DNA of 21,991 bases from a virus, in UHGV virus genome UHGV-0131363. One strand, written 5' to 3'. Each line of letters begins with the position of its first letter. Position 1 is the first letter of the stretch. A model generated the notes under the pieces. It was not told the DNA's origin and ran no database searches. It saw only the letters and a program-made list of their open reading frames with translations. Positions 1-21,759 of this stretch are shown here, in pieces. The translations under genes and the position numbers were made by a program.

Positions 1-18
1 CGTGTGCTCTTCCGATCT
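1..18. other. Illumina TruSeq-type adapter remnant (CGTGTGCTCTTCCGATCT) at contig end
   Basis: Bases 1-18 read cgtgtgctcttccgatct, identical to the 3' end of the common Illumina adapter (...AGACGTGTGCTCTTCCGATCT). Non-biological sequence. Confidence 0.85.
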
Positions 19-317
19 GTTTCCAGATTGAAAGAGCGATACGGAGCACCTTCTTTAACGATACCTTCAGCACCTAACTCTGAAGCCTTACCCATATCAT
101 AGATAGTCATCAGGTTTTCTTTGTGTGCAGTCGTTGAACCAACACCTTTTACGTGCTTCTTAACGTTCAACAATGCACGATATTCACGAATGCTGCCATC
201 AGCTTTTACATTAACAGCACGGAAAATTTTACCTTCAAAGTTACCTTGAATCATTTTACGAACTACTTCAGATTTGTTTGCCGTATCGTCCAGTGCTACC
301 GTAATGATATTGTTCAT
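19..317 (-). CDS. hypothetical protein, 3'-truncated at window/contig edge (N-terminus MNNIITVALDDTANKSEVVRKMIQGNFEGKIF...)
   Basis: Manual translation of the minus strand from ATG at 317..315 stays open for about 100 codons down to the window start, so no stop is seen and it is absent from the ORF track. Sits 12 nt downstream of the TGA of the 329..1024 gene, same orientation as all neighbours. The frame reads through into adapter bases 1-18. Confidence 0.45.
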
Positions 318-328
318 AAGTTCTTCTC

Positions 329-1024
329 TCAATGTTTAACTAACATGGTTTTAATGTGTGGAAGGATTCTGTTTACCTTCTGAACATTCTTCTCTGTATC
401 TTCTATAAAGCATACTATATTAAAGTAAGGAAGAATGCAAGACTGAATCATCCTCACTTTCAAACTTTCTGCACTTATAGAGTTAGTTCCAAAACCACGC
501 ATAAAAAGCAAGTAATCATGCTCTATATTGTGCCTTAAAAACATCTCAGTAGGTATTCTCTGAGATTCACCTCTTGCTGTCAAGAGTCCAACTGCTGCAT
601 GATTTGCAATTGCATCAATAATGTTGAAAACATATGTTGGTTTTGCTCTTACAGAATCAAGAAGATTAGTGTACTGTGAGAATGACCCATCAGTCAATTC
701 CGTTGAGCAATCTTCGTGATTAAAATTTGTAAGAACACCATCAATATCTGCTAAGATGAGGTTACCTTTTTCTACAAGGTCTTTATTGACTATCACTAAA
801 CTATCACGCCTTACACCTATAATTTGTCCAGTCTCTTTGTCCACAACGTTCACAATTGGTTCTGGTGTGTGGAACTCTTCAAGTGAACATACAACTTCTC
901 TTGCAGTGTCTTCAAAATCCCTGCACTGTTCTGGAGTCCATACGCAGGAATCAAGACCTAACTCATGAGGATGCAAGTCATAAGCGTGGCACAGGACTTC
1001 ATCAGACTTTCTTAATTTTTTCAT
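329..1024 (-). CDS. HAD-superfamily phosphatase, 5'(3')-deoxyribonucleotidase-like, with ~90-aa N-terminal extension
   Basis: HAD motif I LILADIDGVLTNF (DxDGV, as in 5'(3')-deoxyribonucleotidases), motif II-like GLLTARGES, motif IV-like VCFIEDTEKN. Start overlaps the upstream gene by 23 nt. Confidence 0.55.
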   Translation of the reverse strand: MKKLRKSDEVLCHAYDLHPHELGLDSCVWTPEQCRDFEDTAREVVCSLEEFHTPEPIVNVVDKETGQIIGVRRDSLVIVNKDLVEKGNLILADIDGVLTNFNHEDCSTELTDGSFSQYTNLLDSVRAKPTYVFNIIDAIANHAAVGLLTARGESQRIPTEMFLRHNIEHDYLLFMRGFGTNSISAESLKVRMIQSCILPYFNIVCFIEDTEKNVQKVNRILPHIKTMLVKH

Positions 1025-1550
1025 GATTTACCTTAGAAATGTTTGTTGCAAATTCACATTGAGCGATAACTTTCATATTGTTATAGACATCTTGAGAGTA
1101 TTTCTTAGCTTTAGGGATTCTGTACGAATACCCAGCATTATATGATGCTAAAACTTTTTGTAAAGTCTTCTTTGACTTTGGGTGACCATGTACCTTCGTC
1201 CAAAACTCAAGCTCTTTATGTGTTTCTTTTGCGGCATAGTCAAAATCTTTTAAGAGTTTCTTTTTAGCAACATTAGGACTAATTTTGTTACGCTTTACAA
1301 CAGTCTTCAAGTGATTCTGGAAAATACCGTAATCATGTGTCTTTTTATTCTCTACCTTCAGACCTAACTCTGACTCTTGTAAGGCTATAGCTGCTAGAGT
1401 GATACCCCAACCTTTACCCATGTTATTCTCACCATACTGGTAAGCTTTTAACATGTTCACTTTTTGGCTAATTGATAGCTCTGGGCAGTCAACTGCATAA
1501 GATAAGTGTGCTGTAAACATTAAGCACAAACCTAGAATCAATTTCTTCAT
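1002..1550 (-). CDS. secreted SLT-domain protein (lytic transglycosylase-like) with N-terminal signal peptide
   Basis: N-terminus MKKLILGLCLMFTAHLSYA is a typical Sec signal peptide. Family-1 lytic transglycosylase-like motifs: ALQESELG (catalytic E-S), GIFQN (GLMQ-like), SYNAGYS (AYNAG-like). RBS AGGAG lies 5 nt upstream of the ATG at 1550. Confidence 0.6.
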   Translation of the reverse strand: MKKLILGLCLMFTAHLSYAVDCPELSISQKVNMLKAYQYGENNMGKGWGITLAAIALQESELGLKVENKKTHDYGIFQNHLKTVVKRNKISPNVAKKKLLKDFDYAAKETHKELEFWTKVHGHPKSKKTLQKVLASYNAGYSYRIPKAKKYSQDVYNNMKVIAQCEFATNISKVNHEKIKKV

Positions 1551-1581
1551 TGGTTCTCCTGTTTAGTTTATCGTGACAACA

Positions 1582-1610
1582 ATTATACAGCACTCTGCAC
1601 AAAATACAAA
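1582..1610 (-). promoter_or_regulatory. candidate sigma70-like promoter upstream of the SLT-domain gene (-10 TATAAT)
   Basis: Minus strand carries a perfect TATAAT (plus-strand attata 1582-1587) about 30 nt upstream of the gene start. The -35 (TTTGTA, 17-nt spacer) is poor and overlaps the U-tract of the upstream terminator. Confidence 0.3.
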
Positions 1611-1633
1611 TAAAAAAGGCCGCCGAAGCAGCC
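1601..1633 (-). terminator. rho-independent terminator downstream of rIIB
   Basis: Minus-strand RNA forms GGCUGC-uucg-GCGGCC (6 bp with one G-U pair, UUCG tetraloop) followed by UUUUUUAUUUGUAUUUU. Lies 15 nt after the rIIB stop. Confidence 0.65.
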
Positions 1634-1651
1634 TTTTAAGAGAATTACTTA

Positions 1652-2761
1652 TTAGATTTCACGTTTATGCTGAGAAATAAGTTCGCCAGCAGTACCAACG
1701 ATAACATGTAGAGCTTCAGTCTTGCCATCCCATGCTTTCAGAACATTACGCTGGCTATCAACGATAGCTGCAACTTCATAACGTGATGAACGCATTTTCA
1801 TATCATTGTAATCAGTTGGAACAGATACAACATCTCGTGGGTGGACACGAACTTTCAGGATTGTATCACCTGAGAAGCTACGAACATAATCCCAAGCACC
1901 AACATGAAGACCTTGAGAGCAAGTCACGTTACGGTTATTATCAACCATCCAACGTGGCATCTCTACAATGTTACCCAAATCGTTAGGAACTTTGTAGGTG
2001 TGGGAGTCAACCAGCTTACCTTCACGAGTAGAGACTTTCTTCCAACCAATGATGTAGCCTTCTCCATCAATTTCAACATCAAGGTGAGATACAAATCCCC
2101 AAAGTTGTTCTACAGAATCTTTAGATGGGTTTTCCATCAGTTTTTCGAAGAACATTACAAGTCGTTCAAAACCTTTATCGCCAGTTTTCATCATGTGAAG
2201 AATACGGTCAACCAGAGTAGAACGCATCTCAACAGCACCGTAGAATAGCTTGTCACCTTTGATTGTGATAGCACCCTGAGTGAAGTTTTCGATAGACTTA
2301 CGAATGTTCATCAGTTCAAAGGCTTTCTTGAACTCACCTTTCACAACATGAACTACAATCTCTTGATAGTTCGGATGAGTAGACTCAACAATTTCAGATT
2401 CTGAACCATAAGTCATAATTACAGAATCACCAGTAATCATGTACTCAATCTTGTCATCTTTCTGCATAGCTTCGTGCAGTTTATTTACTGGAGCTTTCTG
2501 TACAGCGTCTTTAACTACCTTTTCAACTGGTTTTCCAGCTTTCTTCTTAAAGGTCTTAGCAACTTGTTTCAAAGTCTTCGTAGCTGGTGTAGAAGTTGCC
2601 TTCTTATTCCCTTTTAAGGTTGCTTCATGACGCTCTACAGCACGACCGACTGAACGGGTTGAAGTATTAAATTTCTGTGCAATAGCTGTTTTAGTCAGCT
2701 TACCTTCTTTAACCAGTTTGTAAATTTCTGCGTCAATCTGTGCTTTAGTTTTAGTAGTCAT
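1652..2761 (-). CDS. rIIB: rIIB protein (T4 rIIB-like)
   Basis: 369 aa, with C-terminal region VHPRDVVSVPTDYNDMKMR and LVDRILHMMKTGDKGFE...ENPSKDSVEQLW resembling T4 rIIB. Lies immediately downstream of rIIA in the same orientation, as in T4. Confidence 0.8.
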   Translation of the reverse strand: MTTKTKAQIDAEIYKLVKEGKLTKTAIAQKFNTSTRSVGRAVERHEATLKGNKKATSTPATKTLKQVAKTFKKKAGKPVEKVVKDAVQKAPVNKLHEAMQKDDKIEYMITGDSVIMTYGSESEIVESTHPNYQEIVVHVVKGEFKKAFELMNIRKSIENFTQGAITIKGDKLFYGAVEMRSTLVDRILHMMKTGDKGFERLVMFFEKLMENPSKDSVEQLWGFVSHLDVEIDGEGYIIGWKKVSTREGKLVDSHTYKVPNDLGNIVEMPRWMVDNNRNVTCSQGLHVGAWDYVRSFSGDTILKVRVHPRDVVSVPTDYNDMKMRSSRYEVAAIVDSQRNVLKAWDGKTEALHVIVGTAGELISQHKREI

Positions 2762-2805
2762 CTTATTACTCTCTCTTGTTAGTTAATAAATCATTTTGTG
2801 ATGCT

Positions 2806-2835
2806 ATTTTAAGGGGCTTTGAAGCCCCTTGTCAA
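2806..2835 (-). promoter_or_regulatory. candidate sigma70-type promoter for rIIB (-35 TTGACA, 18-nt spacer, -10 TAAAAT) with a 7-bp hairpin in the spacer
   Basis: Minus strand reads TTGACA (plus tgtcaa 2830-2835), an 18-nt spacer, then TAAAAT (plus atttta 2806-2811). The spacer contains the inverted repeat aaggggc/gcccctt (2811-2817 and 2824-2830). Sits in the rIIA-rIIB intergenic region about 40 nt upstream of the rIIB ATG. Confidence 0.45.
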
Positions 2836-2840
2836 ACACT

Positions 2841-5207
2841 TTAATCGTAAATTGTAGTCCCTTCTGGAACACATTTTACATCAAAACCTAAGAACTTACT
2901 CACTTCGATGGGTGACACTTTATTCCAATCTAAATGAGAAAGCAAGAAGTTTTCTTGTTTTCTTTTTGAAAGATAGTTTGCCACCTTAATAACCATACGG
3001 TCACCAGCTTTCTTAATTTTCTTGTAAAGCTTTGTATCGTTGTCAAGACAGTCTTTCAAAGTTTTCAATACACTAATGGTATAAGTGTATGCAAATGGTG
3101 CAGCAACGTATTGGATTTTACCGAACATTGCCTCTACAGCCTCTTCATTTCCTTCTAGGAAGATAGTTTTGTTTGTATCCCTTGAATAACAATACCCGCG
3201 AGAAATCTTCCTGTTATTAAACGTAAAGTTTCTGGCAATAATCCAACTGCTTGTAAGGTCAAGGACACCATTCATATAGATACGCGTCATATATCTGTTA
3301 TGGTTAATCCAGTGAACATCAGTTAAGCTGTCGTTCAAGAGTTTCTCATCTACTTCAATCCAATCTTCTGGTATCTTTTTCCAATTTGCTTTTCGGAAAA
3401 CATAGACTGTCTTACCTGTAACATTAGCAACTGACTTAGCTACATCTTCTGGAGATGAGCAAAAACATTCACCATCAACTGTGTCACCAATTGCCTTAAT
3501 GTAAAGCTGAGGTTCTTCAATTGTGTCTAAGTCCTCTGACACCTCTTTGTAGGAGGCTACACCTTCTGCTGGAACAGCTTTCCAGAGTTTTACAACACCT
3601 CTTACAGCTTCTTTACGCTGGTAATGGTGTTCCTTATCAGACATTTTCACAATCTTTAACAAGCTTTTATCAAGTTTGTGCAGATTGATTAAGTCATCTA
3701 ACTCTTTTTCAGTCGAGAATACAAAGACAATACCATTGTATCTGTGAAACAGACTTGACTCACTGGCATAGTCTCGACATGCACCACGCAAGATTTGGTT
3801 GCGTCCTACAGTCTTCTCAGTACCATTTTTATTGCGACGGTCATTTATAACAAACAAAAACTGTTCAATTTGGCTTTTACGCATTGCGCCAAAGATATTG
3901 AACATACTTGCCTCTTGAGTGTAGGAAAGTGCTGTTGCACGAATCTTACTCTCTAAAGAGTTGAACTTGACATAAGCAACTGGGTCATAAAGATAATCTA
4001 CTTTAGGGATGTTGTTTCCGTTCCTATCAACCTTAATATTACCTTTACCGTCACGTTCATAAATGACTGAGCCGTCTTCTGCGTAGATAATTCCACGACG
4101 AATGTTTAGTAATTCTTCTTCCAGAGAATCAAGCTTAACGCCTCCCCACTCTAACTTTGGACACACAGCATTAAACATCTCTCGTGAGTTCAAACGTAAC
4201 TCAGCATAAGCCTGTGCAGCATCCATGAGTGTAGGTTGACTGTTAACTTTCTTGATAACATCCTTTGTAATTGCTTCAGTTATCTTTTTAGTAGCCTCAA
4301 TGATAACATTTTTTGTCGTGTCATTCATCTGCAATGCTTCACGAGAAGCTGCAATAGCGACTGAACCAATAGGCATGTAGATGTTTACAAGGTCTACGCT
4401 CCTACGGAAAAATTCTGGCAATACTTTGAAGAAATCATCACCAAGTAATGCTTCCATGTTAACAGGGTAGGCAATGTTACCCATCACCACATTAAACTCT
4501 GTCCTGTTATCACTAGAACGCCAGCTGTGCTTATGAATCATGGCATCATAAACACCTTCTTCACGGGCAATGACGTTCATATCTGCTAATACATCGTCGT
4601 ACTCAATATTACTTTCTGGTTTTACAGTGAAGTATGAGTACACATTCCCAGCTTCTTCAAAGAACTTTGAGATACGGTGGTCAGCAACTGCCACACGTAC
4701 AGCTAAACCATTAGGTTCTTTTGTTGGGTTAGTTGTCAGCTTAGTTACTTGAGGGATACCATTCTCAAGATAAACAGAGTACTTATTAACAACACCATCA
4801 ACATAGCTAGATACTGTGAATGACTGAGCAATTGCAAATGGTGACTTTGAGCCGATACCCATTGCACCAATGTAGTCATTAGAGTCATTCTTCGTAGAAG
4901 CTCCATAGTTTAGGTACAAACTCATAACTTTATCATGAGTCAATCCAGTTCCAAAATCACGAACTTCGAAGTAAGGCTCAAAACGAGTAGGTAAATGCAC
5001 ATGGAATGGGATGTTCTCTTTTCCAGCCTCTTTCTGAGCATCTACTGCGTTACATGACAGTTCACGAATCACTGCCCTTTCTTTAAAGGTATATACACCA
5101 GAACTCAAAAGGCTGAACATTTCAGGTGTCATTGTAATCTGTGCTTGAGACGTCTCTAAAGAAGTTGAACTCTTAATCACTTCTGCGTGGTCGTTTACCA
5201 TGCGCAT
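2841..5207 (-). CDS. rIIA: rIIA protein (T4 rIIA-like, GHKL-type ATPase fold at N-terminus)
   Basis: 788 aa. N-terminal EMFSLLSSGVYTFKERAVIRELSCNAVDAQ and DFGTGLT...GAMGIGSKSPF match the Bergerat ATPase N-box and G-box pattern of T4 rIIA. RBS GAGGA upstream of the ATG at 5207. Confidence 0.85.
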   Translation of the reverse strand: MRMVNDHAEVIKSSTSLETSQAQITMTPEMFSLLSSGVYTFKERAVIRELSCNAVDAQKEAGKENIPFHVHLPTRFEPYFEVRDFGTGLTHDKVMSLYLNYGASTKNDSNDYIGAMGIGSKSPFAIAQSFTVSSYVDGVVNKYSVYLENGIPQVTKLTTNPTKEPNGLAVRVAVADHRISKFFEEAGNVYSYFTVKPESNIEYDDVLADMNVIAREEGVYDAMIHKHSWRSSDNRTEFNVVMGNIAYPVNMEALLGDDFFKVLPEFFRRSVDLVNIYMPIGSVAIAASREALQMNDTTKNVIIEATKKITEAITKDVIKKVNSQPTLMDAAQAYAELRLNSREMFNAVCPKLEWGGVKLDSLEEELLNIRRGIIYAEDGSVIYERDGKGNIKVDRNGNNIPKVDYLYDPVAYVKFNSLESKIRATALSYTQEASMFNIFGAMRKSQIEQFLFVINDRRNKNGTEKTVGRNQILRGACRDYASESSLFHRYNGIVFVFSTEKELDDLINLHKLDKSLLKIVKMSDKEHHYQRKEAVRGVVKLWKAVPAEGVASYKEVSEDLDTIEEPQLYIKAIGDTVDGECFCSSPEDVAKSVANVTGKTVYVFRKANWKKIPEDWIEVDEKLLNDSLTDVHWINHNRYMTRIYMNGVLDLTSSWIIARNFTFNNRKISRGYCYSRDTNKTIFLEGNEEAVEAMFGKIQYVAAPFAYTYTISVLKTLKDCLDNDTKLYKKIKKAGDRMVIKVANYLSKRKQENFLLSHLDWNKVSPIEVSKFLGFDVKCVPEGTTIYD

Positions 5208-7570: not shown

Positions 7571-7582
7571 TCTCTCTCTCTC
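7571..7582. repeat. (TC)6 dinucleotide repeat forming the GAGAGA purine-rich RBS of the Nampt-family gene
   Basis: Plus strand tctctctctctc at 7571-7582 gives (GA)6 on the minus strand, 6 nt upstream of the ATG at 7564. Similar GAGAG runs precede other starts (rIIB, 10403, 20148). Confidence 0.7.
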
Positions 7583-8074
7583 TTAGTTATGTCTTGCAAA
7601 CTCACCATGAAGTTCTATTCGCTTTTTAATTACAGCTTCTTTTGCTTCTTCTACCGTTTTAAATCTTCCACAAAAGTATTCTTTATGGTAAAGCATGACT
7701 CTTGCTTTGTAAAGACCTGTTTGTTTACAAAAACTTACACCCTTCACACCAGTTTTATTATTCTTGTATATACCCCTATTCCTCTGATTTTGTGACTTTG
7801 TGCTAAGTCTTAAATTATCCAACTTATTATTAGATTTATCAAGGTCTATGTGGTCTATCTCATATCCACTTGGTATCTCACCTCCAGACATAATCCATGC
7901 AATATTATGTGCATAGTACCTCTTCTTATTTATCTGGACTTGGATATAACCCTTCTTAGACCTTGTGCCAGCCACATTACCAGCAATAGCGGTACTGCAA
8001 AGGGTTACTCTCCAAATTAATAAACCTGTATCTGGTTCATATATTAGGTATCTTTCAAAATAACCCTTATTCAT
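7583..8074 (-). CDS. free-standing HNH homing endonuclease with C-terminal AP2-type DNA-binding domain
   Basis: 163 aa. HNH motif GYEIDHIDLDKSNNKLDNLRLSTKSQNQRN and AP2-like segment GVKGVSFCKQTGLYKARVMLYHKEYFCGRFKTVEEAKEAV. Inserted between the Prs-family and Nampt-family genes. Confidence 0.75.
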   Translation of the reverse strand: MNKGYFERYLIYEPDTGLLIWRVTLCSTAIAGNVAGTRSKKGYIQVQINKKRYYAHNIAWIMSGGEIPSGYEIDHIDLDKSNNKLDNLRLSTKSQNQRNRGIYKNNKTGVKGVSFCKQTGLYKARVMLYHKEYFCGRFKTVEEAKEAVIKKRIELHGEFARHN

Positions 8075-8082
8075 ACTGTTAC

Positions 8083-8979
8083 CTAATCAATGGTTGCTAC
8101 AGTCACTTGACCGTAATGTGTTAAGCCACGGTCTTTAGCTTCACCTAAAGTGTTTGTAGTGTAGATATGGTCAATACCGTTGTCAAGTAAGTTTTCAACA
8201 CCTTTAGAGAAAATACCATGAGTTACATAGAGTTCCACACGTTTTGCACCTGCTTCACGTAGGTGTTTAGCTGCCTCTACGAAGGTTCGACCACCATCAC
8301 AGATATCATCAAGAATCATGACAGTTTTATCGGTCAAATCAACATCGTCAAGGATTCGCATACCAGTGATTTCTCCAGTCTTAAGATTGCGAACCTTAGA
8401 CATTGTGATATATGGTTTATCTACCTCTTTAGCGGTCTCTGCAACCTTCTTAGCAGCACCTGCATCTGGGGCTACTAAGTAATCAACCAGTGGGTCATTT
8501 GCATAGTGGACTGCAATCTCCTTTTGAGGAATACTCTGGAAGCAGTTAAACAGGTTATCTGGTACATAGCTGTGAGGGTCAACTGCACAGACTGCGCCAA
8601 ATCCCATTGCATTAATCTGTTTAGCAAAAACCTTTAAAGCTGCTGCGTCACCTTTAAACATGTGACGGTCATATCGTGCATTTGGTAAGTAGTAAAAGAT
8701 GACAGTCTTTAAAGCATAATCATGAGGAATTAAATCATCAATTGCTTCTTTAGCAAGTGCCACAGCAAATAATGTGTCTTTGTCATAACCCTTTACAATC
8801 ATAATCACGTTGTTGATGGATGATGTAGCATAAGCAGTAAAATCAACAAACTCTGGTGAAAAGTGTCCACCAATCTCACCAGAAGGGAATTGGACGATGT
8901 TAAACTCTTCTTCATGAGTCCCCTTAGCTGGTGAATGAACTGTAACACGGATAGATGTTTTCATAGTTTTCTCTCTCAA
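8083..8979 (-). CDS. prs: ribose-phosphate pyrophosphokinase-family protein (Prs-like); candidate Adps (ADP-ribose pyrophosphokinase) of a NARP1 NAD+ reconstitution pathway
   Basis: 298 aa. PRPP-synthetase motifs YLPNARYDRH (compare E. coli Prs YFGYARQDRR), VAPDAGAAKK, and the PRTase-type binding loop VMILDDICDGGRTF...GAKRVELYVTHGIFS. ATGA overlap with the upstream gene. Confidence 0.85.
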   Translation of the reverse strand: MREKTMKTSIRVTVHSPAKGTHEEEFNIVQFPSGEIGGHFSPEFVDFTAYATSSINNVIMIVKGYDKDTLFAVALAKEAIDDLIPHDYALKTVIFYYLPNARYDRHMFKGDAAALKVFAKQINAMGFGAVCAVDPHSYVPDNLFNCFQSIPQKEIAVHYANDPLVDYLVAPDAGAAKKVAETAKEVDKPYITMSKVRNLKTGEITGMRILDDVDLTDKTVMILDDICDGGRTFVEAAKHLREAGAKRVELYVTHGIFSKGVENLLDNGIDHIYTTNTLGEAKDRGLTHYGQVTVATID

Positions 8980-10418: not shown

Positions 10419-10738
10419 TAAAGTTTAATACAGAACTTATGAAGTTCTTCTTCAGTAACTGTGACAACTTTATCATCAACACGTAAGTTTGTCTCGTAAA
10501 AATTTGAGAAATGTGCTTTGTGTTTTACTTTAAATACTCCAGCAGCCTCAATACATTTCAATGCTTCCATACCAGTGGAGTCAAACAGACTTTTAGTATA
10601 GACTTTCCACTCTTCAATGGTTTCTGGATTTACTTTGTAACTACCAAATAGTGACATGTTACAGTACGACATAACAAACTCACCGCGTTTGAATCCACCG
10701 CTACTCTGCTCTCCATTGACAGTCACCTTGCCAGCCAT
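10418..10738 (-). CDS. hypothetical protein (start placed at internal ATG 10738; ORF-track start 10819 is inside nrdG)
   Basis: The ORF-track version overlaps nrdG by 119 nt. The ATG at 10738 has GGAG 8 nt upstream and gives a 106-aa product beginning MAGKVTVNGEQ. An ATG at 10672 is an alternative. Confidence 0.45.
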   Translation of the reverse strand: MAGKVTVNGEQSSGGFKRGEFVMSYCNMSLFGSYKVNPETIEEWKVYTKSLFDSTGMEALKCIEAAGVFKVKHKAHFSNFYETNLRVDDKVVTVTEEELHKFCIKL

Positions 10739-11195: not shown

Positions 11196-11495
11196 TCACC
11201 AATACATATAAGTGTTCTTAGCAGCTTTCTTCGGAGACTTACTGTCAATGTCAAAGTCTTCATCTAAGAAGGATGTCTTAGAAAGCTGCCTTATTTGTGT
11301 TCTTGTAAGACGTTTAGTAGCCCTCTTAATCTCTCTACAAGGCTGACTTGTAAAGTCATAAGAGCCACCTTTTCTGGACATCATATCAGAATGGAAGTAG
11401 ACATCTGAAGCATTTTCTCTGTTACGTACCTCATTTCTCCACTCATAAAGTCCATGAACGTTCTTTAAACCTTTTCTTCGAATTGTTTTACTCAT
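11196..11495 (-). CDS. hypothetical protein (99 aa)
   Basis: ORF in the same-strand array between nrdD and nrdG. No recognisable motif. Confidence 0.5.
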   Translation of the reverse strand: MSKTIRRKGLKNVHGLYEWRNEVRNRENASDVYFHSDMMSRKGGSYDFTSQPCREIKRATKRLTRTQIRQLSKTSFLDEDFDIDSKSPKKAAKNTYMYW

Positions 11496-11887
11496 TCAAA
11501 CACCACCTGATAAGGAACCAGTTTAGTAATAAACTCTTCACAGTGCTCTTTAATGAAGTTTTGCAATGGCACACAGTCTTGTGCACAAGTCATTAACATA
11601 ATGTACTCTGGATTCATAATGTTATCAATACTGTAGAAGACAACATCGTTAGATAATTCGTGACCGTCTTCTTCAGACCAAGTTCCAGTGACTACAACTA
11701 ATTTGTCAAGCAACTCATTAGGCAACGCTGCACCATCTTCTATGGAATCACTTAGAACGTTGTCACTGATGTACAATGTAAATGTCGTGCGGAATGTTGA
11801 GTATCTTACATGATTCTTTTCACAAGAGCCACACTCTGAAGCGTAATCTTTAATCCACTCTAACTGTTTTTGGTTCAACTTAATCAT
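11492..11887 (-). CDS. hypothetical protein (131 aa)
   Basis: ORF with 4-nt overlaps to both neighbours. Cys-containing N-terminus (ECGSCEK). No recognisable family. Confidence 0.55.
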   Translation of the reverse strand: MIKLNQKQLEWIKDYASECGSCEKNHVRYSTFRTTFTLYISDNVLSDSIEDGAALPNELLDKLVVVTGTWSEEDGHELSNDVVFYSIDNIMNPEYIMLMTCAQDCVPLQNFIKEHCEEFITKLVPYQVVFE

Positions 11888-12084
11888 AATTTCACCTTAG
11901 TTGGTAATGCGCTGAATGCTATAGCTAACCCTAAAAATGGTTTGAAGCATGACCATAAATCCATCTGACCATGATATGATAAACTCCATTGTGGGTCTGA
12001 AAAACCCCATAACATAACACTAACCCCAAAGAAGAAGATTAGAATGTGGAGTATGTATATCATCGTTTTTGATATCTTAAACAT
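11884..12084 (-). CDS. hypothetical small membrane protein (66 aa)
   Basis: Hydrophobic segment IYILHILIFFFGVSVMLWGF. Coupled by a 4-nt overlap to the downstream gene. Confidence 0.45.
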   Translation of the reverse strand: MFKISKTMIYILHILIFFFGVSVMLWGFSDPQWSLSYHGQMDLWSCFKPFLGLAIAFSALPTKVKL

Positions 12085-12238
12085 TTTAACTTATCTCTCA
12101 ATTCACAATAAGAGAGTCCTAAAAAGAACCCTAGTAAGACAGAACCTATGAATAGGCCAATGATGTTCTCTGCCATATCTAACATCCAATAAAAAAGGTG
12201 ATGCAAGCCTATCAAGACCCACATCACCTTGTCAAGTT

Positions 12239-14383
12239 TTACATAGAAATTCTGTCACGAATCTCAGCGATTTTTGCATCATTCATTCGAGATTCACCTT
12301 TAATCTTAGTCCACCCAAGATATCCGCACACCCTGTTAATCACAGAGATGTCGTGTGAATGGCAAACCTCACATTCTTCAACATCAGCCTTTGGTCTGTT
12401 ACCACAATGTTCACAGATTGCTAAGTCAAAGTTAAGTCCCTGATAAAAACCCTTCAACATCCCTCTGGTAATACAACTTTTAAGTGCTGGCAAGTTTTCT
12501 GGGTTAGCTACCCTTACATACTGGATTCTGCCGCCTCTACAGATATGGAAGAATGGCTCTTCTAAGTCCTGCTTCTCAAATGGTGAGATGTCTGCTGCAA
12601 CATTCATATGGAAACTGTTTGTAAAGTATTCCTTGTCAGAGACACCTTTAATGACGCCAAACATATCTCTGAACTGTTTTAACTGAGTTCCACAAAGTGA
12701 TTCTGCTGGAGTGCCATATACCGCATACAAGAAGCCATCTTCGTTCTTAAACTCTTCAGTTTTCATGTTGATGTATTCCAGAACATCATATGCAAAACTA
12801 TAGCCTCCAACTTCATGAAGTCGTTTACCTTCAGCAAGAACAGATAGCTCATCAAGCGCAGTAACCCCAAAAGAAGCTGTGAAGGACTTCACAATATCCC
12901 AACCAACCCTGTCAGTAGGCTTCTTAGTTCCTTTGTACAGACCACCTTGTGTAAATGCAAGAGGGTTAGAACTTGCTGGCATATTGGCAATCATTTCATA
13001 GCGTTTCTTGTGGAAGCTGCGAATCATCTCTAGGTACTTATCAAGCTCTTTCCAGAAATCTAAACCATTCTCTTTAGAATACTGGTAAATCATTGGTAAG
13101 TTCAAAGATACAGCACCAATGTTAGCACGACCAACGTAGAACTCTTCCCCATCCTCGTTAAGATATGGAGATAAGAAGGCTCTACAACCCATCGGCGAGA
13201 TTACCTTGCCAGAACGCTCAAAAGCTTCTGCTACAGCACCATGACCAGATACACTTAAGAAATCTGGATACATCGCTTTAGAGCAACACTCTATAGCTTT
13301 ACTGTACAGGTGGCCTTGACAGATATTCTCATTATGTCTCTTCTGGTCATAAATATAAACCAGTTTAGGGAATACAACAGGTTTCTTGCTCTTACCTTGT
13401 CCATTCATACGAACATCTAGGAGAGTACTTGCAATCATATATTGCAGTCGGTTATCTTCATTAGACATATCTGAGTCAAGTAACCCGAATGTCAAAGTTG
13501 TAAATGCAAAATCCCCACGGCTACAAGGTACGGTATTTAGTTTCATTTCAAGTGACTGGAAACCTTGAGTTAGTTCAATCTGTAGCTGCTCCATGACATA
13601 ATTGTGGTAATGTTCTTTAGGAATACCATAAGATGCTGCTTTCTCAGCATGATAGCGTAGAGACTTCTTAGCATACGGTACAAGTACCTTATCAATCTCT
13701 GCTAAAGTAAAGCCACCAAATTGCTGTGCAGTTGCTGAAAGAACTACGTCTCCAATAACCTGTAAGGCCGACAGCGCAGACTTTGGTTCACAATATTCGA
13801 TGCCAGACATTTCAAAGCCACCTTTCAGGACTTTACCAATGTCAAACAGGCAACAGTTGATACCACCAAAGATTAGGTCTCTTAAATCATGGATATAGAT
13901 AAACCCTTTTTCAATGGCTTCAAGTTCCTCTGGTGTTAAATGGTACTGTTTAAAGATTTCTTTAGTCAGATAACCACGAATAATTGAACCTTTTGTAGAA
14001 ATTAAACTGCTGTCAAAGTTAGCATTCTCTCTGTCACCTAAGAAGAGTGTATCTTTGGTCTTCTGGTAGAGTTCATCCCAATTTTGAGCAACTTCTTTAC
14101 GGTAATTTCTATATGTTGAGTAAGACTCATAAATCTCGTGATTAACTTCTGCCAAAGCACCTTCAACAATACTGTGAATATCATTTACCGAGATAAGCAA
14201 ATTATTCTGCTTAGCGGACTTTACCAGAATCCTCATAAATGCTGACTCAAGAGCTTGAGTAACATCTGGTGGAAGCTCTTTATAACCAACCCTATTAGCT
14301 GACTTTGTGACTGCTGCTAAAACTTTTTTGATATCAGGTTCTTCGAGTGAGCCATTCTTTTTAATAATCTGTACTTTGTTCAT
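12239..14383 (-). CDS. nrdD: anaerobic ribonucleoside-triphosphate reductase NrdD (glycyl-radical enzyme)
   Basis: 714 aa. C-terminal zinc ribbon CEHCG...CEVCHSH and glycyl-radical motif RVCGYLG. N-terminal ATP-cone-like region. Internal SPMGCRAFLSPY and YGTPAESLC resemble NrdD active-site regions. Confidence 0.95.
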   Translation of the reverse strand: MNKVQIIKKNGSLEEPDIKKVLAAVTKSANRVGYKELPPDVTQALESAFMRILVKSAKQNNLLISVNDIHSIVEGALAEVNHEIYESYSTYRNYRKEVAQNWDELYQKTKDTLFLGDRENANFDSSLISTKGSIIRGYLTKEIFKQYHLTPEELEAIEKGFIYIHDLRDLIFGGINCCLFDIGKVLKGGFEMSGIEYCEPKSALSALQVIGDVVLSATAQQFGGFTLAEIDKVLVPYAKKSLRYHAEKAASYGIPKEHYHNYVMEQLQIELTQGFQSLEMKLNTVPCSRGDFAFTTLTFGLLDSDMSNEDNRLQYMIASTLLDVRMNGQGKSKKPVVFPKLVYIYDQKRHNENICQGHLYSKAIECCSKAMYPDFLSVSGHGAVAEAFERSGKVISPMGCRAFLSPYLNEDGEEFYVGRANIGAVSLNLPMIYQYSKENGLDFWKELDKYLEMIRSFHKKRYEMIANMPASSNPLAFTQGGLYKGTKKPTDRVGWDIVKSFTASFGVTALDELSVLAEGKRLHEVGGYSFAYDVLEYINMKTEEFKNEDGFLYAVYGTPAESLCGTQLKQFRDMFGVIKGVSDKEYFTNSFHMNVAADISPFEKQDLEEPFFHICRGGRIQYVRVANPENLPALKSCITRGMLKGFYQGLNFDLAICEHCGNRPKADVEECEVCHSHDISVINRVCGYLGWTKIKGESRMNDAKIAEIRDRISM

Positions 14384-14402
14384 TATTGCCCCTTTACATG
14401 CT

Positions 14403-14424
14403 AAAAAGGTCTCCGAAGAGACCC
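14403..14424 (-). terminator. rho-independent terminator-like hairpin immediately upstream of nrdD
   Basis: Minus-strand RNA forms GGGUCUC-uucg-GAGACC(U) (UUCG tetraloop, plus-strand arms 14408-14413 and 14418-14423) followed by UUUUU, then the nrdD RBS. Confidence 0.6.
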
Positions 14425-14431
14425 TTTCATT

Positions 14432-14638
14432 TTAAATCTTTTTAGAAAACTTAGAAACGAGTTTTCTCAGTTTTTCAGTGATGCCTAACTGTATCTCTAA
14501 TATTTCAAAGATAACCCATAGTAACATGGCTCCAAACAATGAACCTTGTTCAAAATCAGTAAATAGGTTAACAACAAACATACCAATCACAATGGCTGGT
14601 GCATCAACAACCAGACCTTCCCAAAGGCGTTTAAGCAT
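14432..14638 (-). CDS. hypothetical small membrane protein (68 aa, two predicted TM helices)
   Basis: Hydrophobic segments AIVIGMFVVNLF and FGAMLLWVIFEIL. RBS GAGGTGA 4-5 nt upstream of the ATG at 14638. Overlaps the glutaredoxin-like gene by 8 nt. Confidence 0.45.
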   Translation of the reverse strand: MLKRLWEGLVVDAPAIVIGMFVVNLFTDFEQGSLFGAMLLWVIFEILEIQLGITEKLRKLVSKFSKKI

Positions 14639-14873
14639 TATTCACCTCTGCCATAAAATTCTGTAGCGTTCCAACAGGTTTTAGGTTTTGTCCATCAGTT
14701 TTCATGATGAATGGCATCTGACGAACTGGCATCTGTGCAATATCCATCAGGTCTGATAGTTCATAGTCCTGCCCTAACATTCTCACAACATGGTCAATAC
14801 CACGAGCTTTTGCAAAATTCTTTGCAGTCTCACACTGAGGGCATCCAGTTTTGGAGTAAATTACATAAGTCAT
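14631..14873 (-). CDS. nrdH: glutaredoxin-like protein (NrdH/NrdC-type redoxin, CPQC active site)
   Basis: 80 aa with a CxxC motif (SKTGCPQCETAK) at the position expected for a glutaredoxin/NrdH fold. Immediately downstream of nrdB. Confidence 0.75.
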   Translation of the reverse strand: MTYVIYSKTGCPQCETAKNFAKARGIDHVVRMLGQDYELSDLMDIAQMPVRQMPFIMKTDGQNLKPVGTLQNFMAEVNNA

Positions 14874-15946
14874 TAAGGAACCTCTAAAAATCCACTATTC
14901 AAATCATCTACAACAGTATTCAACAGGTACGCACCGTTCTGTTGCTCCTGATTAGCATTCTGCTCTTTATCAATTTCCATCTTCTTAATCATGTACTTCA
15001 AAGGTGGTTCTTTAGGAGCTACAAAATCTCTGGGAATGCCAAACATATCATACAGTGGGGCAGCATTATAGTAAACCCACTCATGAAGAAGCTTTGTATT
15101 TAAGCCAACTACAGCACGTCCTTCGGAGAAGATATAATACGACCATTTCTCTTCACTTTCAACTACTTCATCTAAGATTACTTTAATCTCTGGAAGAATT
15201 TGTTGAAAAGCTTTCTGCCACTCATCATCTCTTAAAGTTTCTTTTAAAACTTCAATATCAATTTTAGTGTGAAGGATTTCATCAAGCATAATTTTCTGGA
15301 CAGCTTGAGCAATACCCTGAAATTTATCTTGAGCATCAAGTGCAAAAGTACATGCAAAGGATGCCATAAAAGATATACCTTCAAGTGCAGTCACTGCAAA
15401 CAGCCCTTTCAGAATCACTTTATGGAAGTGTAAAGGGTCTTTGTCCAGAAGTGAGTCACGCACATAACTCAGGCGATAGTTTATACCTTCATCCAGTAAT
15501 TCTTCAAGAACACGATTCACAGTTTTTAATCGGTCTTGTACAGCAACATTCTGGTTAATCTCATCTAAGATTGTTTCAGGGTTTTTAATACATTGCCTTA
15601 CAATCTCTGAGTAAGTAAGAGCATGTAGGTTTTCAATCTCAGACTGCTTCATAATTGCAGTTGCATAGATGTCATCAGAGATGAATGGTGCAAAGGCGAA
15701 TGCCAAGCTCTTAGCAACTTGGGTATCTGCTTCCCACTGCCACTTAAGAATCTCAAGCATTACACCTGACATTGATGCTGGGACACTCTCAAAATCAAGA
15801 CGTGATTGTTCAAAAGGGAACTCATCTTCTGACCAATCTTGTGCTTTTTGTTGTTTATAAAGCTCAAAGATTTTTGGGTAGTGTTTATTAAGTGAGTCAA
15901 ATGTCTTTCTCTCACCACCTAAAAAGATTGGGTGTTGGTTAATCAT
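14873..15946 (-). CDS. nrdB: ribonucleotide reductase class Ia beta subunit NrdB
   Basis: N-terminal HPIFLGG...KIFELYKQQ...DWSEDEF and downstream helices follow the NrdB pattern (E. coli/T4 EPMFFG...FFWRPEEV). Start placed at ATG 15946, which overlaps the upstream stop (ATGA) and has GGAG upstream. The ORF-track start at 16006 is a TTG inside the upstream gene. Confidence 0.9.
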   Translation of the reverse strand: MINQHPIFLGGERKTFDSLNKHYPKIFELYKQQKAQDWSEDEFPFEQSRLDFESVPASMSGVMLEILKWQWEADTQVAKSLAFAFAPFISDDIYATAIMKQSEIENLHALTYSEIVRQCIKNPETILDEINQNVAVQDRLKTVNRVLEELLDEGINYRLSYVRDSLLDKDPLHFHKVILKGLFAVTALEGISFMASFACTFALDAQDKFQGIAQAVQKIMLDEILHTKIDIEVLKETLRDDEWQKAFQQILPEIKVILDEVVESEEKWSYYIFSEGRAVVGLNTKLLHEWVYYNAAPLYDMFGIPRDFVAPKEPPLKYMIKKMEIDKEQNANQEQQNGAYLLNTVVDDLNSGFLEVP

Positions 15947-16200
15947 AGTGTGATTTCTCCTTTCTTTATCATTTCTAAGGCTTGTTTTCGGTCTAGAACT
16001 TCCCAATTTTCTTCATTGAACATCTCATATGGTCTTGCATAGATTTTACCATCTGCTGTAGAGATGTATGACACACCATCGACCCATGAGTCATCATTTT
16101 GTTTTATCATCATATCTGTACTACTTACATAGTACAACGTTTTCCGAGGTTTGTAGAGCAGATAAATTGGCCACTCATGATTTGCTATTAAGTCCTTCAT
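15943..16200 (-). CDS. hypothetical protein between nrdA and nrdB (85 aa from ATG 16200; ORF-track start 16284 overlaps nrdA)
   Basis: The ATG at 16200 is preceded by GGAGAGAG. The ORF-track ATG at 16284 would overlap the nrdA 3' end by 29 nt. No recognisable motif. Confidence 0.4.
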   Translation of the reverse strand: MKDLIANHEWPIYLLYKPRKTLYYVSSTDMMIKQNDDSWVDGVSYISTADGKIYARPYEMFNEENWEVLDRKQALEMIKKGEITL

Positions 16201-16222
16201 ACTCTCTCCAAAGTTATTTTTA

Positions 16223-16242
16223 GAGGGTCTTTTACGACCCTC
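16223..16242 (-). other. perfect 7-bp stem-loop (GAGGGTC-6 nt-GACCCTC) between nrdA stop and the next gene start; not followed by a U-tract
   Basis: Inverted repeat visible at 16223-16229 and 16236-16242. The minus-strand flank downstream is A-rich, so it is unlikely to be an intrinsic terminator. Possibly an RNA processing or stability element. Confidence 0.3.
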
Positions 16243-16255
16243 ATAGTTGTTAAAA

Positions 16256-18490
16256 CTAAACACCACAACCCTCGCAATAAGCATCTTGCAGTGCAGATTT
16301 ACCTACACCGATACGGCTGTTCAGATAGTACATGGTTTTCATACCTACCGAGTTGGCATAAATCATGTACTTCAGAGCTTGAGCCAATGATACCTTCTTA
16401 GACTTTGCATAGTCAACATAGAAGTCTGAAGAGATAGCTTGACCAGTGAACTTTTGAACAATTGCATAACAATCAATCATATCAAAGGTGTCAATACCCC
16501 AAGCAATTTCATATACATACTTCAACTCTTCATAATCTGGAACAATAAACAGTACGTTACCAGTTGCAGACTTTTTAGTTAAAATAAAGTCACGAATTGG
16601 ATACAAGCCATTTGTCGTATTGGTTGCCAGTGAAGAACTCTCATTAGGCATGTAAGCTTCTAATACAGAGTTTCGGATTCCACCATTTTCTTTGATACGT
16701 TGTGCTAAGTCATCCCAATCATATCGTAGTTTTGCATCATGCTTTTCATCAATCTTCTTGTTAGCTGTCTTTGGAGGAACCCAGCCTTCAGGATACTTAG
16801 TGAACTTCATGTATTCTGGAACGCCACGCTCTTTAGCAAGTCTCAGAGAGGCTTCATGCAGATAGTAAGAGTGCATCTCTGCCAGTTCATGAAGTTTCGT
16901 TTTACCTGCTCGTGAAGAGTAGTTCACGTAGTTCTTCGCAAGGTAATGAGCCACATTTGTAAGGCCAATCCCAACAGAACGACGCTTCTGAACATGGTTA
17001 CGCATCGACGGATACGGATAATCCATAAGGTCAATAACGGAGTCAACCATTGCAAGAGCATAATAAGCAACGTCAGCGTATTCATCTTCTGAAATTCTCC
17101 CTGCAACCAAACTAGCTAGGAAGCAAAGAGCCACCTCACCATCCTCTTTCACAGCATCGTCTCTGTAAAGGTCTGTCTCTTTCTCAAAACCATACACTGG
17201 CAACACAATTTCCATACAAAGATTTGACATCTTCAATGGTTCTTTAAATGGTGTATGTGTGTTTACATTGTTAGTGAAGAATGGATACACACGACCTGTA
17301 GCATAACGCTGTTGAATAAACAGCTTAGCAATTTCACGAGCCTTGACTCGTCTGTGCTTAACTCCTGAATGTACTGCGTGACCAACTGCCATAGCAAACT
17401 CATCAGCAGATGCTGTGTAGAACATGTCATAGAGTTTTGGTGCATCTTTGTAAGAGAATAGCAACCAATCTGTATCATACTGAACACACTGCCAGAAATA
17501 ATCGTTTGTGCCGAATGAATAGTCCATCTCATTAATACGTTTAGAAGGAACCGTTGTAGGGTGCTTCAAACGCAGTAAATCTTCAATCTGCGGGTCTAGA
17601 GCAGTGTAGAAGTTATTAGCTGAACCGCCACGACTCTTCTGTTTGTTTGCCTCTACAGATGAACGTACAAGCTTGTAATAAGGTAGTTTACCCATGTGCT
17701 CAATCGTATTTTGACGGATACCATCACCAATAGTACGTGTCTCCATCAGCATACCAATACCAGCTTGCTTTGTGGTCATATCATAAGCAACCTTTGCAGC
17801 AATACCAAGAGACTCAGCAGTATCATTTGCCTTAATCAAACAGCATGACGCATAACCTGATTTAGTTGCTCTTAACCCGTTTAAATAGGGCGTAGGAGCG
17901 TTAATCTTCAGGTCAGATAAGTAAGTGTACAGCTTGATAACATCTTGCAGTCTACGGTGCTTTGGTTGCTTCTCAAAGGCTTTCATAGCCATACCCATGA
18001 ACATAAATTGTGGTGACTCAAACAGTCTTCCCGTTTTAATATCACGGATACCATACTTGTCTCTGAACTGTTTCAAGACTGCATAACCGTAAGAGATATC
18101 TTTTGAGTGCACGATGTAACCTTGCAGGTATTCAAACTCTTCCTGTGAATAGTCCATCTTCTCCCAAAGTCCTGCTCTCTCCATATTTTTAACGAAGGTA
18201 ACCAGCGTAGGAACCTTAGTAAAACCTCCAAAGGCTTCTTTGTAGATAATTCCCAGAAGTAGCCGTCCAGCCATATCTGAGTACTCTTGAGTTTGTTTAT
18301 CAACACAAACATCAATCATGGCTTGGTGCATCTCTTTTGTAGTGCAACCTTCATAGACACGTTTCATGGCTTCCATAGTGACTTCTGACCAGATGATTCC
18401 GCGCTTATCTGCCCATGATGCCCACTTATTCAGTCTTTCTGGGTCAAAGCTTACTACTGTACCGTTTGATTTTTTAATTGTCTTAATCAT
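16256..18490 (-). CDS. nrdA: ribonucleotide reductase class Ia alpha subunit NrdA
   Basis: 744 aa. N-terminal ATP-cone (IKTIKKSNGTVVSFDPERL), catalytic-site region NLCMEIVLP, C-terminal CEGCGV tail. RBS AGGA upstream of the ATG at 18490. Confidence 0.95.
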   Translation of the reverse strand: MIKTIKKSNGTVVSFDPERLNKWASWADKRGIIWSEVTMEAMKRVYEGCTTKEMHQAMIDVCVDKQTQEYSDMAGRLLLGIIYKEAFGGFTKVPTLVTFVKNMERAGLWEKMDYSQEEFEYLQGYIVHSKDISYGYAVLKQFRDKYGIRDIKTGRLFESPQFMFMGMAMKAFEKQPKHRRLQDVIKLYTYLSDLKINAPTPYLNGLRATKSGYASCCLIKANDTAESLGIAAKVAYDMTTKQAGIGMLMETRTIGDGIRQNTIEHMGKLPYYKLVRSSVEANKQKSRGGSANNFYTALDPQIEDLLRLKHPTTVPSKRINEMDYSFGTNDYFWQCVQYDTDWLLFSYKDAPKLYDMFYTASADEFAMAVGHAVHSGVKHRRVKAREIAKLFIQQRYATGRVYPFFTNNVNTHTPFKEPLKMSNLCMEIVLPVYGFEKETDLYRDDAVKEDGEVALCFLASLVAGRISEDEYADVAYYALAMVDSVIDLMDYPYPSMRNHVQKRRSVGIGLTNVAHYLAKNYVNYSSRAGKTKLHELAEMHSYYLHEASLRLAKERGVPEYMKFTKYPEGWVPPKTANKKIDEKHDAKLRYDWDDLAQRIKENGGIRNSVLEAYMPNESSSLATNTTNGLYPIRDFILTKKSATGNVLFIVPDYEELKYVYEIAWGIDTFDMIDCYAIVQKFTGQAISSDFYVDYAKSKKVSLAQALKYMIYANSVGMKTMYYLNSRIGVGKSALQDAYCEGCGV

Positions 18491-18508
18491 TTTTGAATCC
18501 TACAGATG

Positions 18509-18532
18509 AAAAGAGCCTCCGAAGAGGCTCCC
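18509..18532 (-). terminator. rho-independent terminator-like hairpin immediately upstream of nrdA
   Basis: Minus-strand RNA forms GAGCCUC-uucg-GAGGCUC (7-bp stem, UUCG tetraloop, plus-strand arms 18513-18519 and 18524-18530) followed by UUUUCAUCU. Confidence 0.6.
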
Positions 18533-18536
18533 TAGT

Positions 18537-18872
18537 TTAAATCTTGAAAATTTGCTCATTCTGCCACATATCGTAAAACTTATCACTTACTTTTGTGACT
18601 GAAGAGGCGTGCATACAATTTAGGAACCATGACGGTGTACTAGCATCCATAATTGTTTCAAGTTTTTGTGTGACATTCACATCCATGTCTGCAACAACGT
18701 AATTGCCTCGCATCTTGCAAACAATTCTTCCAAACAAGATTGCACTTCTGCCTCTTCTGTCGTCACAGTACATAACTGTGTCTCCGTGCTTAACATCTTG
18801 TCCGATACTATCAACACCTAATTTAGCACCTGAGATAATGTCATCATAAGATAGCTTTTTTGCTTTAGACAC
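18537..18872 (-). CDS. hypothetical protein (111 aa)
   Basis: ORF in the same-strand array. No recognisable motif. Confidence 0.5.
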   Translation of the reverse strand: MSKAKKLSYDDIISGAKLGVDSIGQDVKHGDTVMYCDDRRGRSAILFGRIVCKMRGNYVVADMDVNVTQKLETIMDASTPSWFLNCMHASSVTKVSDKFYDMWQNEQIFKI

Positions 18873-19188
18873 GGTATTTCTCCAAGTTTCTTTTTAGATA
18901 TAACCAACCATAGTCAGTTCTTTCTACACCCATGAAGAGTGGAGCCATTACAACTTTACCAAAAGTATTCCTGTGTTGACAGATTTCAAAAGAATACTCT
19001 TTCTCAATATCAATCCCGTATTTGTACAGGACTGCTTTTAAAACTTGTTCATTATCCAGAAGTGTATCTGGAGTCTCACCATACTTCTCAAGTAACGGGT
19101 CATTCATAAACACCGTCATAGAGATATTGTAGTTTGAGAAGTGGCTCTTCTGAGCCACACCTTCTTTATTAATGTTCTGTGAATCCAT
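18865..19188 (-). CDS. hypothetical protein (start at ATG 19188; ORF-track start 19197 is TTG)
   Basis: First in-frame ATG at 19188..19186 gives MDSQNINKEG.... Overlaps the upstream gene by 20 nt. Confidence 0.45.
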   Translation of the reverse strand: MDSQNINKEGVAQKSHFSNYNISMTVFMNDPLLEKYGETPDTLLDNEQVLKAVLYKYGIDIEKEYSFEICQHRNTFGKVVMAPLFMGVERTDYGWLYLKRNLEKYRV

Positions 19189-19924
19189 TATAACCAACCC
19201 CTTTTAACCAGCACTTCAGGTTATTAGCATCATAATTCAGTTTCGGGTATGAGGTTACATGGAACTGCTCACCATCATAGTAGACAATATCTGCAATCCA
19301 TAGTCCATTCTCTTTACAGAAGTCTTTATCTGCTTTAGAGGTAATTGGATTAACTTCTACAAAACCATCTACACCCAAATCCTTTAAGCTACATACAATA
19401 CCTTTGCAGATAACGCATGTGTCAGATACTACCACAAAAAGTTCTTGGCTTTCAAGTTCTACAATGTATTCACCAAGCTGAACTTTAGGGAGATTAGATT
19501 GCTTCATAATCTTCCCATCGGCTGCGCGAACAATTGCATACCACTCTTTACCATCAACTACTGACATTCTGATGATACACTCTTGACCAGTACGCTTCTC
19601 AATATCTGCAAGACGTTTTAAAGCTTCTTCATAGTCGTCTGTGTACTTCAGGTCATTATTATGGCAAACGGCTTCCATAGCGCCATTGTGGTCATGCTGT
19701 GACAGATAAATCAGACCGTCAAGAACATATTGCAAATCTGCCTGAGCATCCAGTGTCTCAATGGGGTCTTTCTCTTCAATTGCTTTTACAAGCTCTTTTG
19801 CTTCTTCAAGCATACATAGAGATTGAGATTTCAAAGACTCCCAATACTCATCACTGTAAGGTTGCTTTTGAGTGTTTCCACAACGAAGATTCCAGTTTTT
19901 TACTGATTCTCTTGAGTTAAACAT
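19169..19924 (-). CDS. two-domain protein: N-terminal MazG-like all-alpha NTP pyrophosphohydrolase-like region, C-terminal CxxC thioredoxin-fold-like region
   Basis: 251 aa. N-terminal LEEAKELVKAIEE...LDAQADLQYVLDGLIYL fits the EExxE...D metal-binding pattern of MazG/dCTPase-type enzymes. C-terminal LFVVVSDTCVICKGIV...LGVDGFVEV resembles a glutaredoxin/thioredoxin beta-CxxC-alpha unit. Both assignments are by eye only. Confidence 0.5.
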   Translation of the reverse strand: MFNSRESVKNWNLRCGNTQKQPYSDEYWESLKSQSLCMLEEAKELVKAIEEKDPIETLDAQADLQYVLDGLIYLSQHDHNGAMEAVCHNNDLKYTDDYEEALKRLADIEKRTGQECIIRMSVVDGKEWYAIVRAADGKIMKQSNLPKVQLGEYIVELESQELFVVVSDTCVICKGIVCSLKDLGVDGFVEVNPITSKADKDFCKENGLWIADIVYYDGEQFHVTSYPKLNYDANNLKCWLKGVGYNGFTEH

Positions 19925-20148
19925 TTGGACTCCTTAAAATATCTGTTAACCTTTAGCTCTCGTGTTTCAATATATTCCAGATGTTCACGTAGCTCTTGAC
20001 GTTTAAGCATTAGGTGCTGCATTTGAGATTCAACAGCTTCAACCTCTTTAATTATTGACTCTCTGGCATTTGCAAGAATGCGCTCAAGTTCTTCAATCTT
20101 GCTGTCAACTTTTGCTACATGACTCACAGCTTTACTTTTGTTAAACAT
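19900..20148 (-). CDS. hypothetical coiled-coil protein (82 aa from ATG 20148; ORF-track start 20163 is TTG)
   Basis: The ATG at 20148 is preceded by GAGAGAGAATAAA. Product is helical and charged (IEELERILANARESIIKEVEAVESQMQHLMLKRQELREHLEYIE). Confidence 0.45.
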   Translation of the reverse strand: MFNKSKAVSHVAKVDSKIEELERILANARESIIKEVEAVESQMQHLMLKRQELREHLEYIETRELKVNRYFKESKCLTQENQ

Positions 20149-20169
20149 TTTATTCTCTCTCAATAGTTA

Positions 20170-21697: not shown

Positions 21698-21715
21698 TAT
21701 GACTCTCCATATGAA

Positions 21716-21742
21716 AAAGCCCCATACTAAGTACAGGGCTTT
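21716..21742 (-). terminator. weak terminator-like hairpin (7-bp stem, 13-nt loop) upstream of the rnh-like gene
   Basis: Inverted repeat aaagccc/gggcttt at 21716-21722 and 21736-21742. The long loop and a U-tract partly inside the stem make it a poor terminator. Confidence 0.3.
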
Positions 21743-21759
21743 AAAGTAACTTTTAGAGA

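Follow-up and report, generated by a model that had tools for sequence, protein, structure and literature searches.

Illumina forward reads that overrun a short insert carry the adapter sequence AGATCGGAAGAGCACACGTCTGAACTCCAGTCA at their 3′ end, and in libraries made by ligation the natural termini of DNA molecules are over-represented as fragment ends, which is the principle on which PhageTerm relies. For phages of the genus Felixounavirus, direct terminal repeats have been identified in PhageTerm studies, e.g. repeats of 581 bp in Pr103Blw (PMC8303462), and direct terminal repeats in phages of this genus are also described in PMC11737134. The deposited Pr103Blw record itself begins and ends with the same 581-bp repeat.

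The stretch of DNA analysed here (the window; 21,991 nt, virus genome UHGV-0131363) is the entire contig ENA ERZ1753952 NODE_95_length_21991_cov_4.45241, a SPAdes-style metagenome contig with a k-mer coverage of 4.45. The loci matching window positions 1-3317 and 11760-21991 are the two ends of that contig, positions 11760-21991 having been compared base for base, and the locus for 1-3317 ends in the adapter junction that is the subject of this analysis. Since the window is the complete contig, its base 1 is a true contig end. Judged by sequence comparison, bases 19 to 21991 are a fragment of a Felixounavirus, that is, of a Felix O1-like myovirus of the kind infecting E. coli and Salmonella, and they make up about a quarter of a Felixounavirus genome of ~88 kb. 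A megablast search with the whole window gave matches to 276 phage records, 167 of which cover at least 80% of the window. The best 12 of the 276 span query positions 19 to 21991 with 94.6-96.7% identity over 97-99% of the window, and all of these are E. coli/Shigella Felixounavirus phages. The fragment is thus both similar to and collinear with classified genomes of the genus. Its genes all lie on the minus strand in the same order as in the relatives, i.e. a conserved hypothetical gene (phrog_2267), polynucleotide kinase, putative lysin, rIIB, rIIA and nicotinate/nicotinamide phosphoribosyltransferase (NAPRTase), followed by ribose-phosphate pyrophosphokinase, the anaerobic and aerobic ribonucleotide reductases, glutaredoxin and exonuclease.

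A few local differences in gene content were seen along the fragment. A gene for a 163-aa HNH_3 (PF13392) endonuclease is located at 7583-8074 on the minus strand, between the NAPRTase and ribose-phosphate pyrophosphokinase genes. It is missing from two otherwise ~98.7% identical contigs (L132 and L134), in which the comparison leaves a gap at 7578-8085 and the flanking genes are adjacent; from the sequences compared, this looks like a presence/absence polymorphism of a homing endonuclease. An HNH endonuclease gene of ~510 bp is inserted upstream of the exonuclease gene in ECML-1 (L141, 21954-22462) but not in the window (20671-20697). The window gene at 20170-20667 matches the SegE_GIY-YIG family (PF19835), and its ECML-1 counterpart is labelled 'NAD synthetase', which may be a misannotation. 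Two short variable segments, at 10456-10703 and 11211-11464, are situated among small hypothetical genes adjoining the anaerobic ribonucleotide reductase activase and are unaligned or replaced in close relatives; ~247 nt in the variable segments compare with 45 nt in ECML-1, and gaps appear against L132, L134 and L137.

The first 18 bases of the window stand apart from the rest. They are almost certainly library adapter and not phage DNA, probably a read-through remnant that was kept as the tip of the contig. The features on which the argument turns are the following, in order of position in the window:

1 to 18, plus strand: remnant of the TruSeq index-side adapter, matching at 18 of 18 positions, unique in the window, with no relative aligning to it.
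3 to 317, minus strand: partial gene as called in a public gene index, with a 105-aa product ending in NLETDRKST.
19 to 317, minus strand: conserved Felixounavirus gene (phrog_2267, homologue of wV8 gp005), of which native codons 1-99 plus 2 nt are present.
25 to 37, plus strand: native AGATTGAAAGAGC, which repeats the adapter core GCTCTTCCGATCT in inverted orientation, with 2 mismatches, at a distance of 6 nt from the junction.
21760 to 21991, minus strand: the other contig end, where a native gene (a 285-aa hypothetical protein in ECML-1) is represented by its last 76 codons plus the stop codon.

Bases 1-18 read exactly CGTGTGCTCTTCCGATCT, which is the 3′-terminal 18 nt of GTGACTGGAGTTCAGACGTGTGCTCTTCCGATCT, the Illumina TruSeq index-side adapter. 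By arithmetic, a given site matches a particular 18-mer exactly with a probability of 4^-18, or ~1.5e-11, and no second match to CGTGTGCTCTTCCGATCT was found in the window on either strand when up to three mismatches were allowed (0.02 matches being expected from shuffled sequences). The G+C content of these bases is 56%, versus 39% for the window as a whole. T18 corresponds to the T overhang of the adapter and abuts the insert, that is, the adapter strand ending in GCTCTTCCGATCT lies directly against the phage DNA; moreover, the native base preceding position 19 is A and not T, so that the junction can be placed without ambiguity between bases 18 and 19. Read on the minus strand, the contig tip runs from ...CAATCTGGAAAC straight into AGATCGGAAGAGCACACG, the 18 nt with which the Read 1 read-through adapter begins. 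The Read 1 and Read 2 adapters (sequences according to PMC10038132) share the 13-mer AGATCGGAAGAGC and can be told apart by the bases that follow it, ACACG indicating Read 1 read-through (index side) and GTCGT indicating Read 2. On the minus-strand tip the 13-mer is followed by ACACG, which assigns the remnant to the Read 1 (index) side, and the Read 2 counterpart AGATCGGAAGAGCGTCGTGTAGGGAAAGAGTGT gives no fit past the shared 13-mer (terminal-prefix match of 0 nt, versus 18 nt for Read 1). No Nextera sequence was detected in the window with up to three mismatches allowed, and no further TruSeq core except for the native two-mismatch look-alike at 25-37.

The homology to other phages stops at the same point. 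Using bases 1-1500 as query, megablast matched 256 phage records, and every listed match begins at query base 19; likewise, in an alignment of the window start with three relatives, identity extends from base 19 onwards and there is none before it. Across the breakpoint the relatives read ...CATAAG(A/G)GTA followed directly by GTTTCCAGATTG, and a 160-nt TP15 probe centred on the breakpoint was covered in full in all 224 matching records. The same strain could furthermore be followed in three contigs from independent metagenome assemblies, namely ERZ1753879 NODE_53_length_41571, ERZ1753607 NODE_53_length_42022 and ERZ922208 k127_8194, which from base 19 are 100.000% identical to the window over 11,189, 7,449 and 11,189 bp, respectively. 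All three read ...CATAAGGGTA followed by GTTTCC at the breakpoint, and native phage DNA continues past it for 3,178, 3,178 and 367 bases, respectively. That is, both the relatives and the same strain carry another sequence in place of bases 1-18, and the adapter sits at the true contig terminus with its 5′ side pointing outward. These same-strain contigs are the nearest available equivalent of read evidence, and they contradict a native origin of bases 1-18.

A native origin would have to mean either that the 18 bases match the adapter by chance or that the 3′ part of the gene has been replaced in this particular strain. Nothing beyond the presence of the 18 bases in the contig argues for this, and it is countered by the minute probability of such an exact match, by at least 120 unrelated viral contigs that carry the 18-mer together with the remainder of the adapter at an end (see below), and by the 38-mer across the junction, which was found neither in IMG/VR nor in JGI metagenomes or GTDB genomes. 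It is refuted by the same-strain contigs, which differ from the window at this place while showing zero mismatches elsewhere over up to 11,189 bp, and its probability is practically nil.

The sibling contigs that span the breakpoint have a coverage of 6.1-6.2, versus 4.45 here, which fits with a break at base 19 brought about by thin coverage. No adapter was found on the inspected ends of related contigs from the sibling assemblies, and a systematic fault of the assembly series is therefore not indicated. The preliminary description had recognized bases 1-18 as the 3′ portion of an Illumina adapter, which the exact and unique 18/18 match bears out, and had concluded that the contig end is an assembly artefact. 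The latter also holds, in that the 18 bases are foreign, with the refinement that the position of the break at base 19 was most likely set by low coverage and not caused by the adapter.

The same 18-mer is widespread in public viral sequences. At least 124 occurrences of CGTGTGCTCTTCCGATCT were found in IMG/VR, in at least 120 unrelated viral contigs (loci L012-L131). Among the matches listed, 120 of 124 lie within 300 nt of a contig end with the 5′ side of the adapter outward, and of the 105 listed cases with at least 4 upstream bases, 102 have GTGACTGGAGTTCAGA, i.e. the remaining part of the adapter, directly before the 18-mer. On the insert side, the listed occurrences are flanked by 123 distinct 12-mers. 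A native element would not show such a pattern, with varied inserts on one side and the adapter remainder on the outside. Remnant lengths in the IMG/VR cases are spread fairly evenly from 18 to 35 nt, so that the length of 18 nt carries no special meaning.

Some of the IMG/VR matches have peculiarities of their own. Three contigs (L026, L064 and L071) carry the 18-mer on both ends, pointing inward, an arrangement that could mimic inverted terminal repeats. Another (L100, position 67, minus strand) has ACACTCTTTCCCTAGA in place of the index-side adapter, apparently a hybrid with the universal adapter. In L088 (position 1040, plus strand) unrelated sequence precedes the 18-mer, which is situated ~1 kb into the locus; an internal chimeric join or mere chance could account for this.

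The adapter junction interrupts the first gene of the fragment. This minus-strand ORF has its ATG start at 317 and continues open to the left edge; in the relatives and in the same strain the full gene has 154 codons, of which the last 55, together with the stop codon, are missing here. Translated, 19-317 agrees in every residue with positions 1-99 of the 154-aa protein, both in TP15 and in the same-strain contig. The protein matches phrog_2267 (unknown function) over residues 4-126 with an E-value of 3.7e-50, and no Pfam match was obtained for it. As the region conserved in phrog_2267 reaches residue 126, it is cut by the break after codon 99. The public gene-index call extends into the adapter, and the last five residues of its 105-aa product, DRKST, are coded by adapter bases 3-17. 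An exact look-up of this product returned this contig only, at positions 3-317. The product is present in the gene-position index and, by exact look-up, has no entry in the clustered protein collection; genes truncated at a contig edge are evidently not handled in the same way by these two resources.

The contig end is not an end of the genome. One could nonetheless suppose that base 19 is a genuine terminus of the packaged genome and that the adapter was ligated onto this natural end, given that natural termini are enriched among the fragment ends of ligation libraries and that Felixounaviruses have defined ends with direct terminal repeats, as cited above. However, window base 19 corresponds to position 78,669 of Pr103Blw, leaving 9,172 bp to the right repeat and 9,752 bp to the end of the genome, and the breakpoint falls within conserved coding sequence, at codon 99/100. 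None of the 224 records matching the breakpoint probe starts or ends there. The breakpoint therefore lies off the Pr103Blw repeat, and the sequence next to it is not repeated at the other end of the contig, as would be the case at the end of a terminal repeat. Moreover, all library fragments bear adapter, so that the junction as such says nothing about natural ends. We regard a natural terminus at base 19 as extremely improbable.

The other end of the contig is a plain break, the homology to the relatives running to base 21991, and no adapter prefix was found there beyond a trivial single base. When the product truncated at this right edge was looked up exactly, ERZ1753952 NODE_95 was the single contig returned. 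The two contig ends show no prefix-suffix overlap, and the longest exact word common to both end regions is 10 nt in direct and 13 nt in inverted orientation. Neither contig end is informative about the ends of the genome. It had been claimed beforehand that the left gene was either truncated or fused to the adapter, and that inferring circularity or terminal repeats from the left end would be unsafe. Both possibilities turn out to apply to the gene, with 99 of 154 codons kept in the DNA and a 105-aa product ending in DRKST on record, and the caution regarding the end was justified, there being no overlap between the ends and the Pr103Blw repeat being 9,172 bp away.

There is one feature that the read-through explanation does not account for, namely the adapter-like motif at 25-37. 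AGATTGAAAGAGC is the sole site in the window within two mismatches of the adapter core; all the relatives have it, hence it is native. A hairpin combining adapter and native bases (1-43) has a folding energy of -9.5 kcal/mol, with a z-score of -3.5. The uniqueness of the motif, its position 6 nt from the junction and the stability of the hairpin would all be in keeping with the adapter having been joined here via the motif, by mispriming, template switching or a snap-back hairpin during library PCR, instead of by plain ligation. Against this, bases 1-18 as a snap-back copy of native bases 25-42 would read GTATCGCTCTTTCAATCT, which differs from the observed sequence at 7 of 18 positions, versus none for the adapter, and this candidate was rejected. 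An adapter-tailed primer annealing to the motif would, by reasoning, place the adapter at 25-37 and in the opposite orientation, not at 1-18. In addition, such motifs were seen beside none of 109 other adapter junctions, versus 5 occurrences in 13,080 control tests (6,540 windows in two orientations), and a general enrichment of adapter-like motifs near adapter junctions was rejected on this count. A motif-mediated joining is thus highly improbable, and the presence of the motif so close to the junction is probably a ~1-in-1000 coincidence noticed post hoc. It is also very unlikely, if slightly less so, that the fragment end at base 19 was non-random, arising from a recurrent in vivo DNA break or from a site-specific library artefact promoted by 25-37; were this true, contig ends tipped with adapter would arise systematically at genomic sites that resemble it.

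Starting from what has been established, namely the identity of the adapter, its exact junction with the phage DNA, the 18 bases being foreign and terminal, and the low coverage, plain read-through would have proceeded as follows. In a ligation-type (TruSeq-style) library, the end of a phage fragment would have fallen by chance at base 19. The insert would have been shorter than the read length, and a forward read of the minus strand, heading left, would have overrun it into the adapter AGATCGGAAGAGCACACG..., with the tail of such a read beyond base 19 going on as AGATCGGAAGAGCACACGTCTGAACTCCAGTCAC. This adapter-bearing read may have been left untrimmed or been incompletely trimmed, and at a coverage of 4.45 no other read would have led further to the left, so that the assembler would have retained the adapter-bearing tip. 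The length of the remnant, 18 nt, would then correspond approximately to the read length minus the insert length, and CGTGTGCTCTTCCGATCTGTTTCC would not occur inside the phage molecule.

Bases 1-18 are, then, an artefact of a routine kind from library preparation and assembly, attached to an ordinary Felixounavirus fragment, and the value of the observation is one of data hygiene only. Bases 1-18 should be trimmed and the left gene marked as partial at base 19 (19-317, without stop codon); the 105-aa product with its spurious DRKST tail should not be used, and neither contig end is usable for conclusions on circularity, terminal repeats or packaging type. More generally, public metagenome and viral collections hold adapter-tipped contigs as well as gene calls derived from them, as illustrated by the at least 120 IMG/VR contigs with this 18-mer. 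Our search of the literature on adapter contamination in public databases returned nothing specific, and none was found on the project PRJNA240307.

Compared with the known Felixounavirus genomes (the Escherichia phages ECML-1, TP15, fjerdesal and wV8, and the Salmonella phage Felix O1 group), the fragment has the same gene order and ~95-97% identity, and differs in covering only about a quarter of the genome and in small indels involving homing-endonuclease genes. The contig end resembles the 581-bp repeats of Pr103Blw in forming an 'end' of a linear record, but it lies 9.2 kb from the homologous repeat position, inside a gene, and has no second copy at the opposite end of the contig. The closest match is with untrimmed TruSeq adapter on the tips of other short-read contigs, with which the window start shares the sequence, the terminal place, the 3′ T against the insert and the loss of homology at the junction. 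Nothing essential separates the two, the remnant being 18 nt long here whereas many of the IMG/VR cases retain the full 34 nt plus index.
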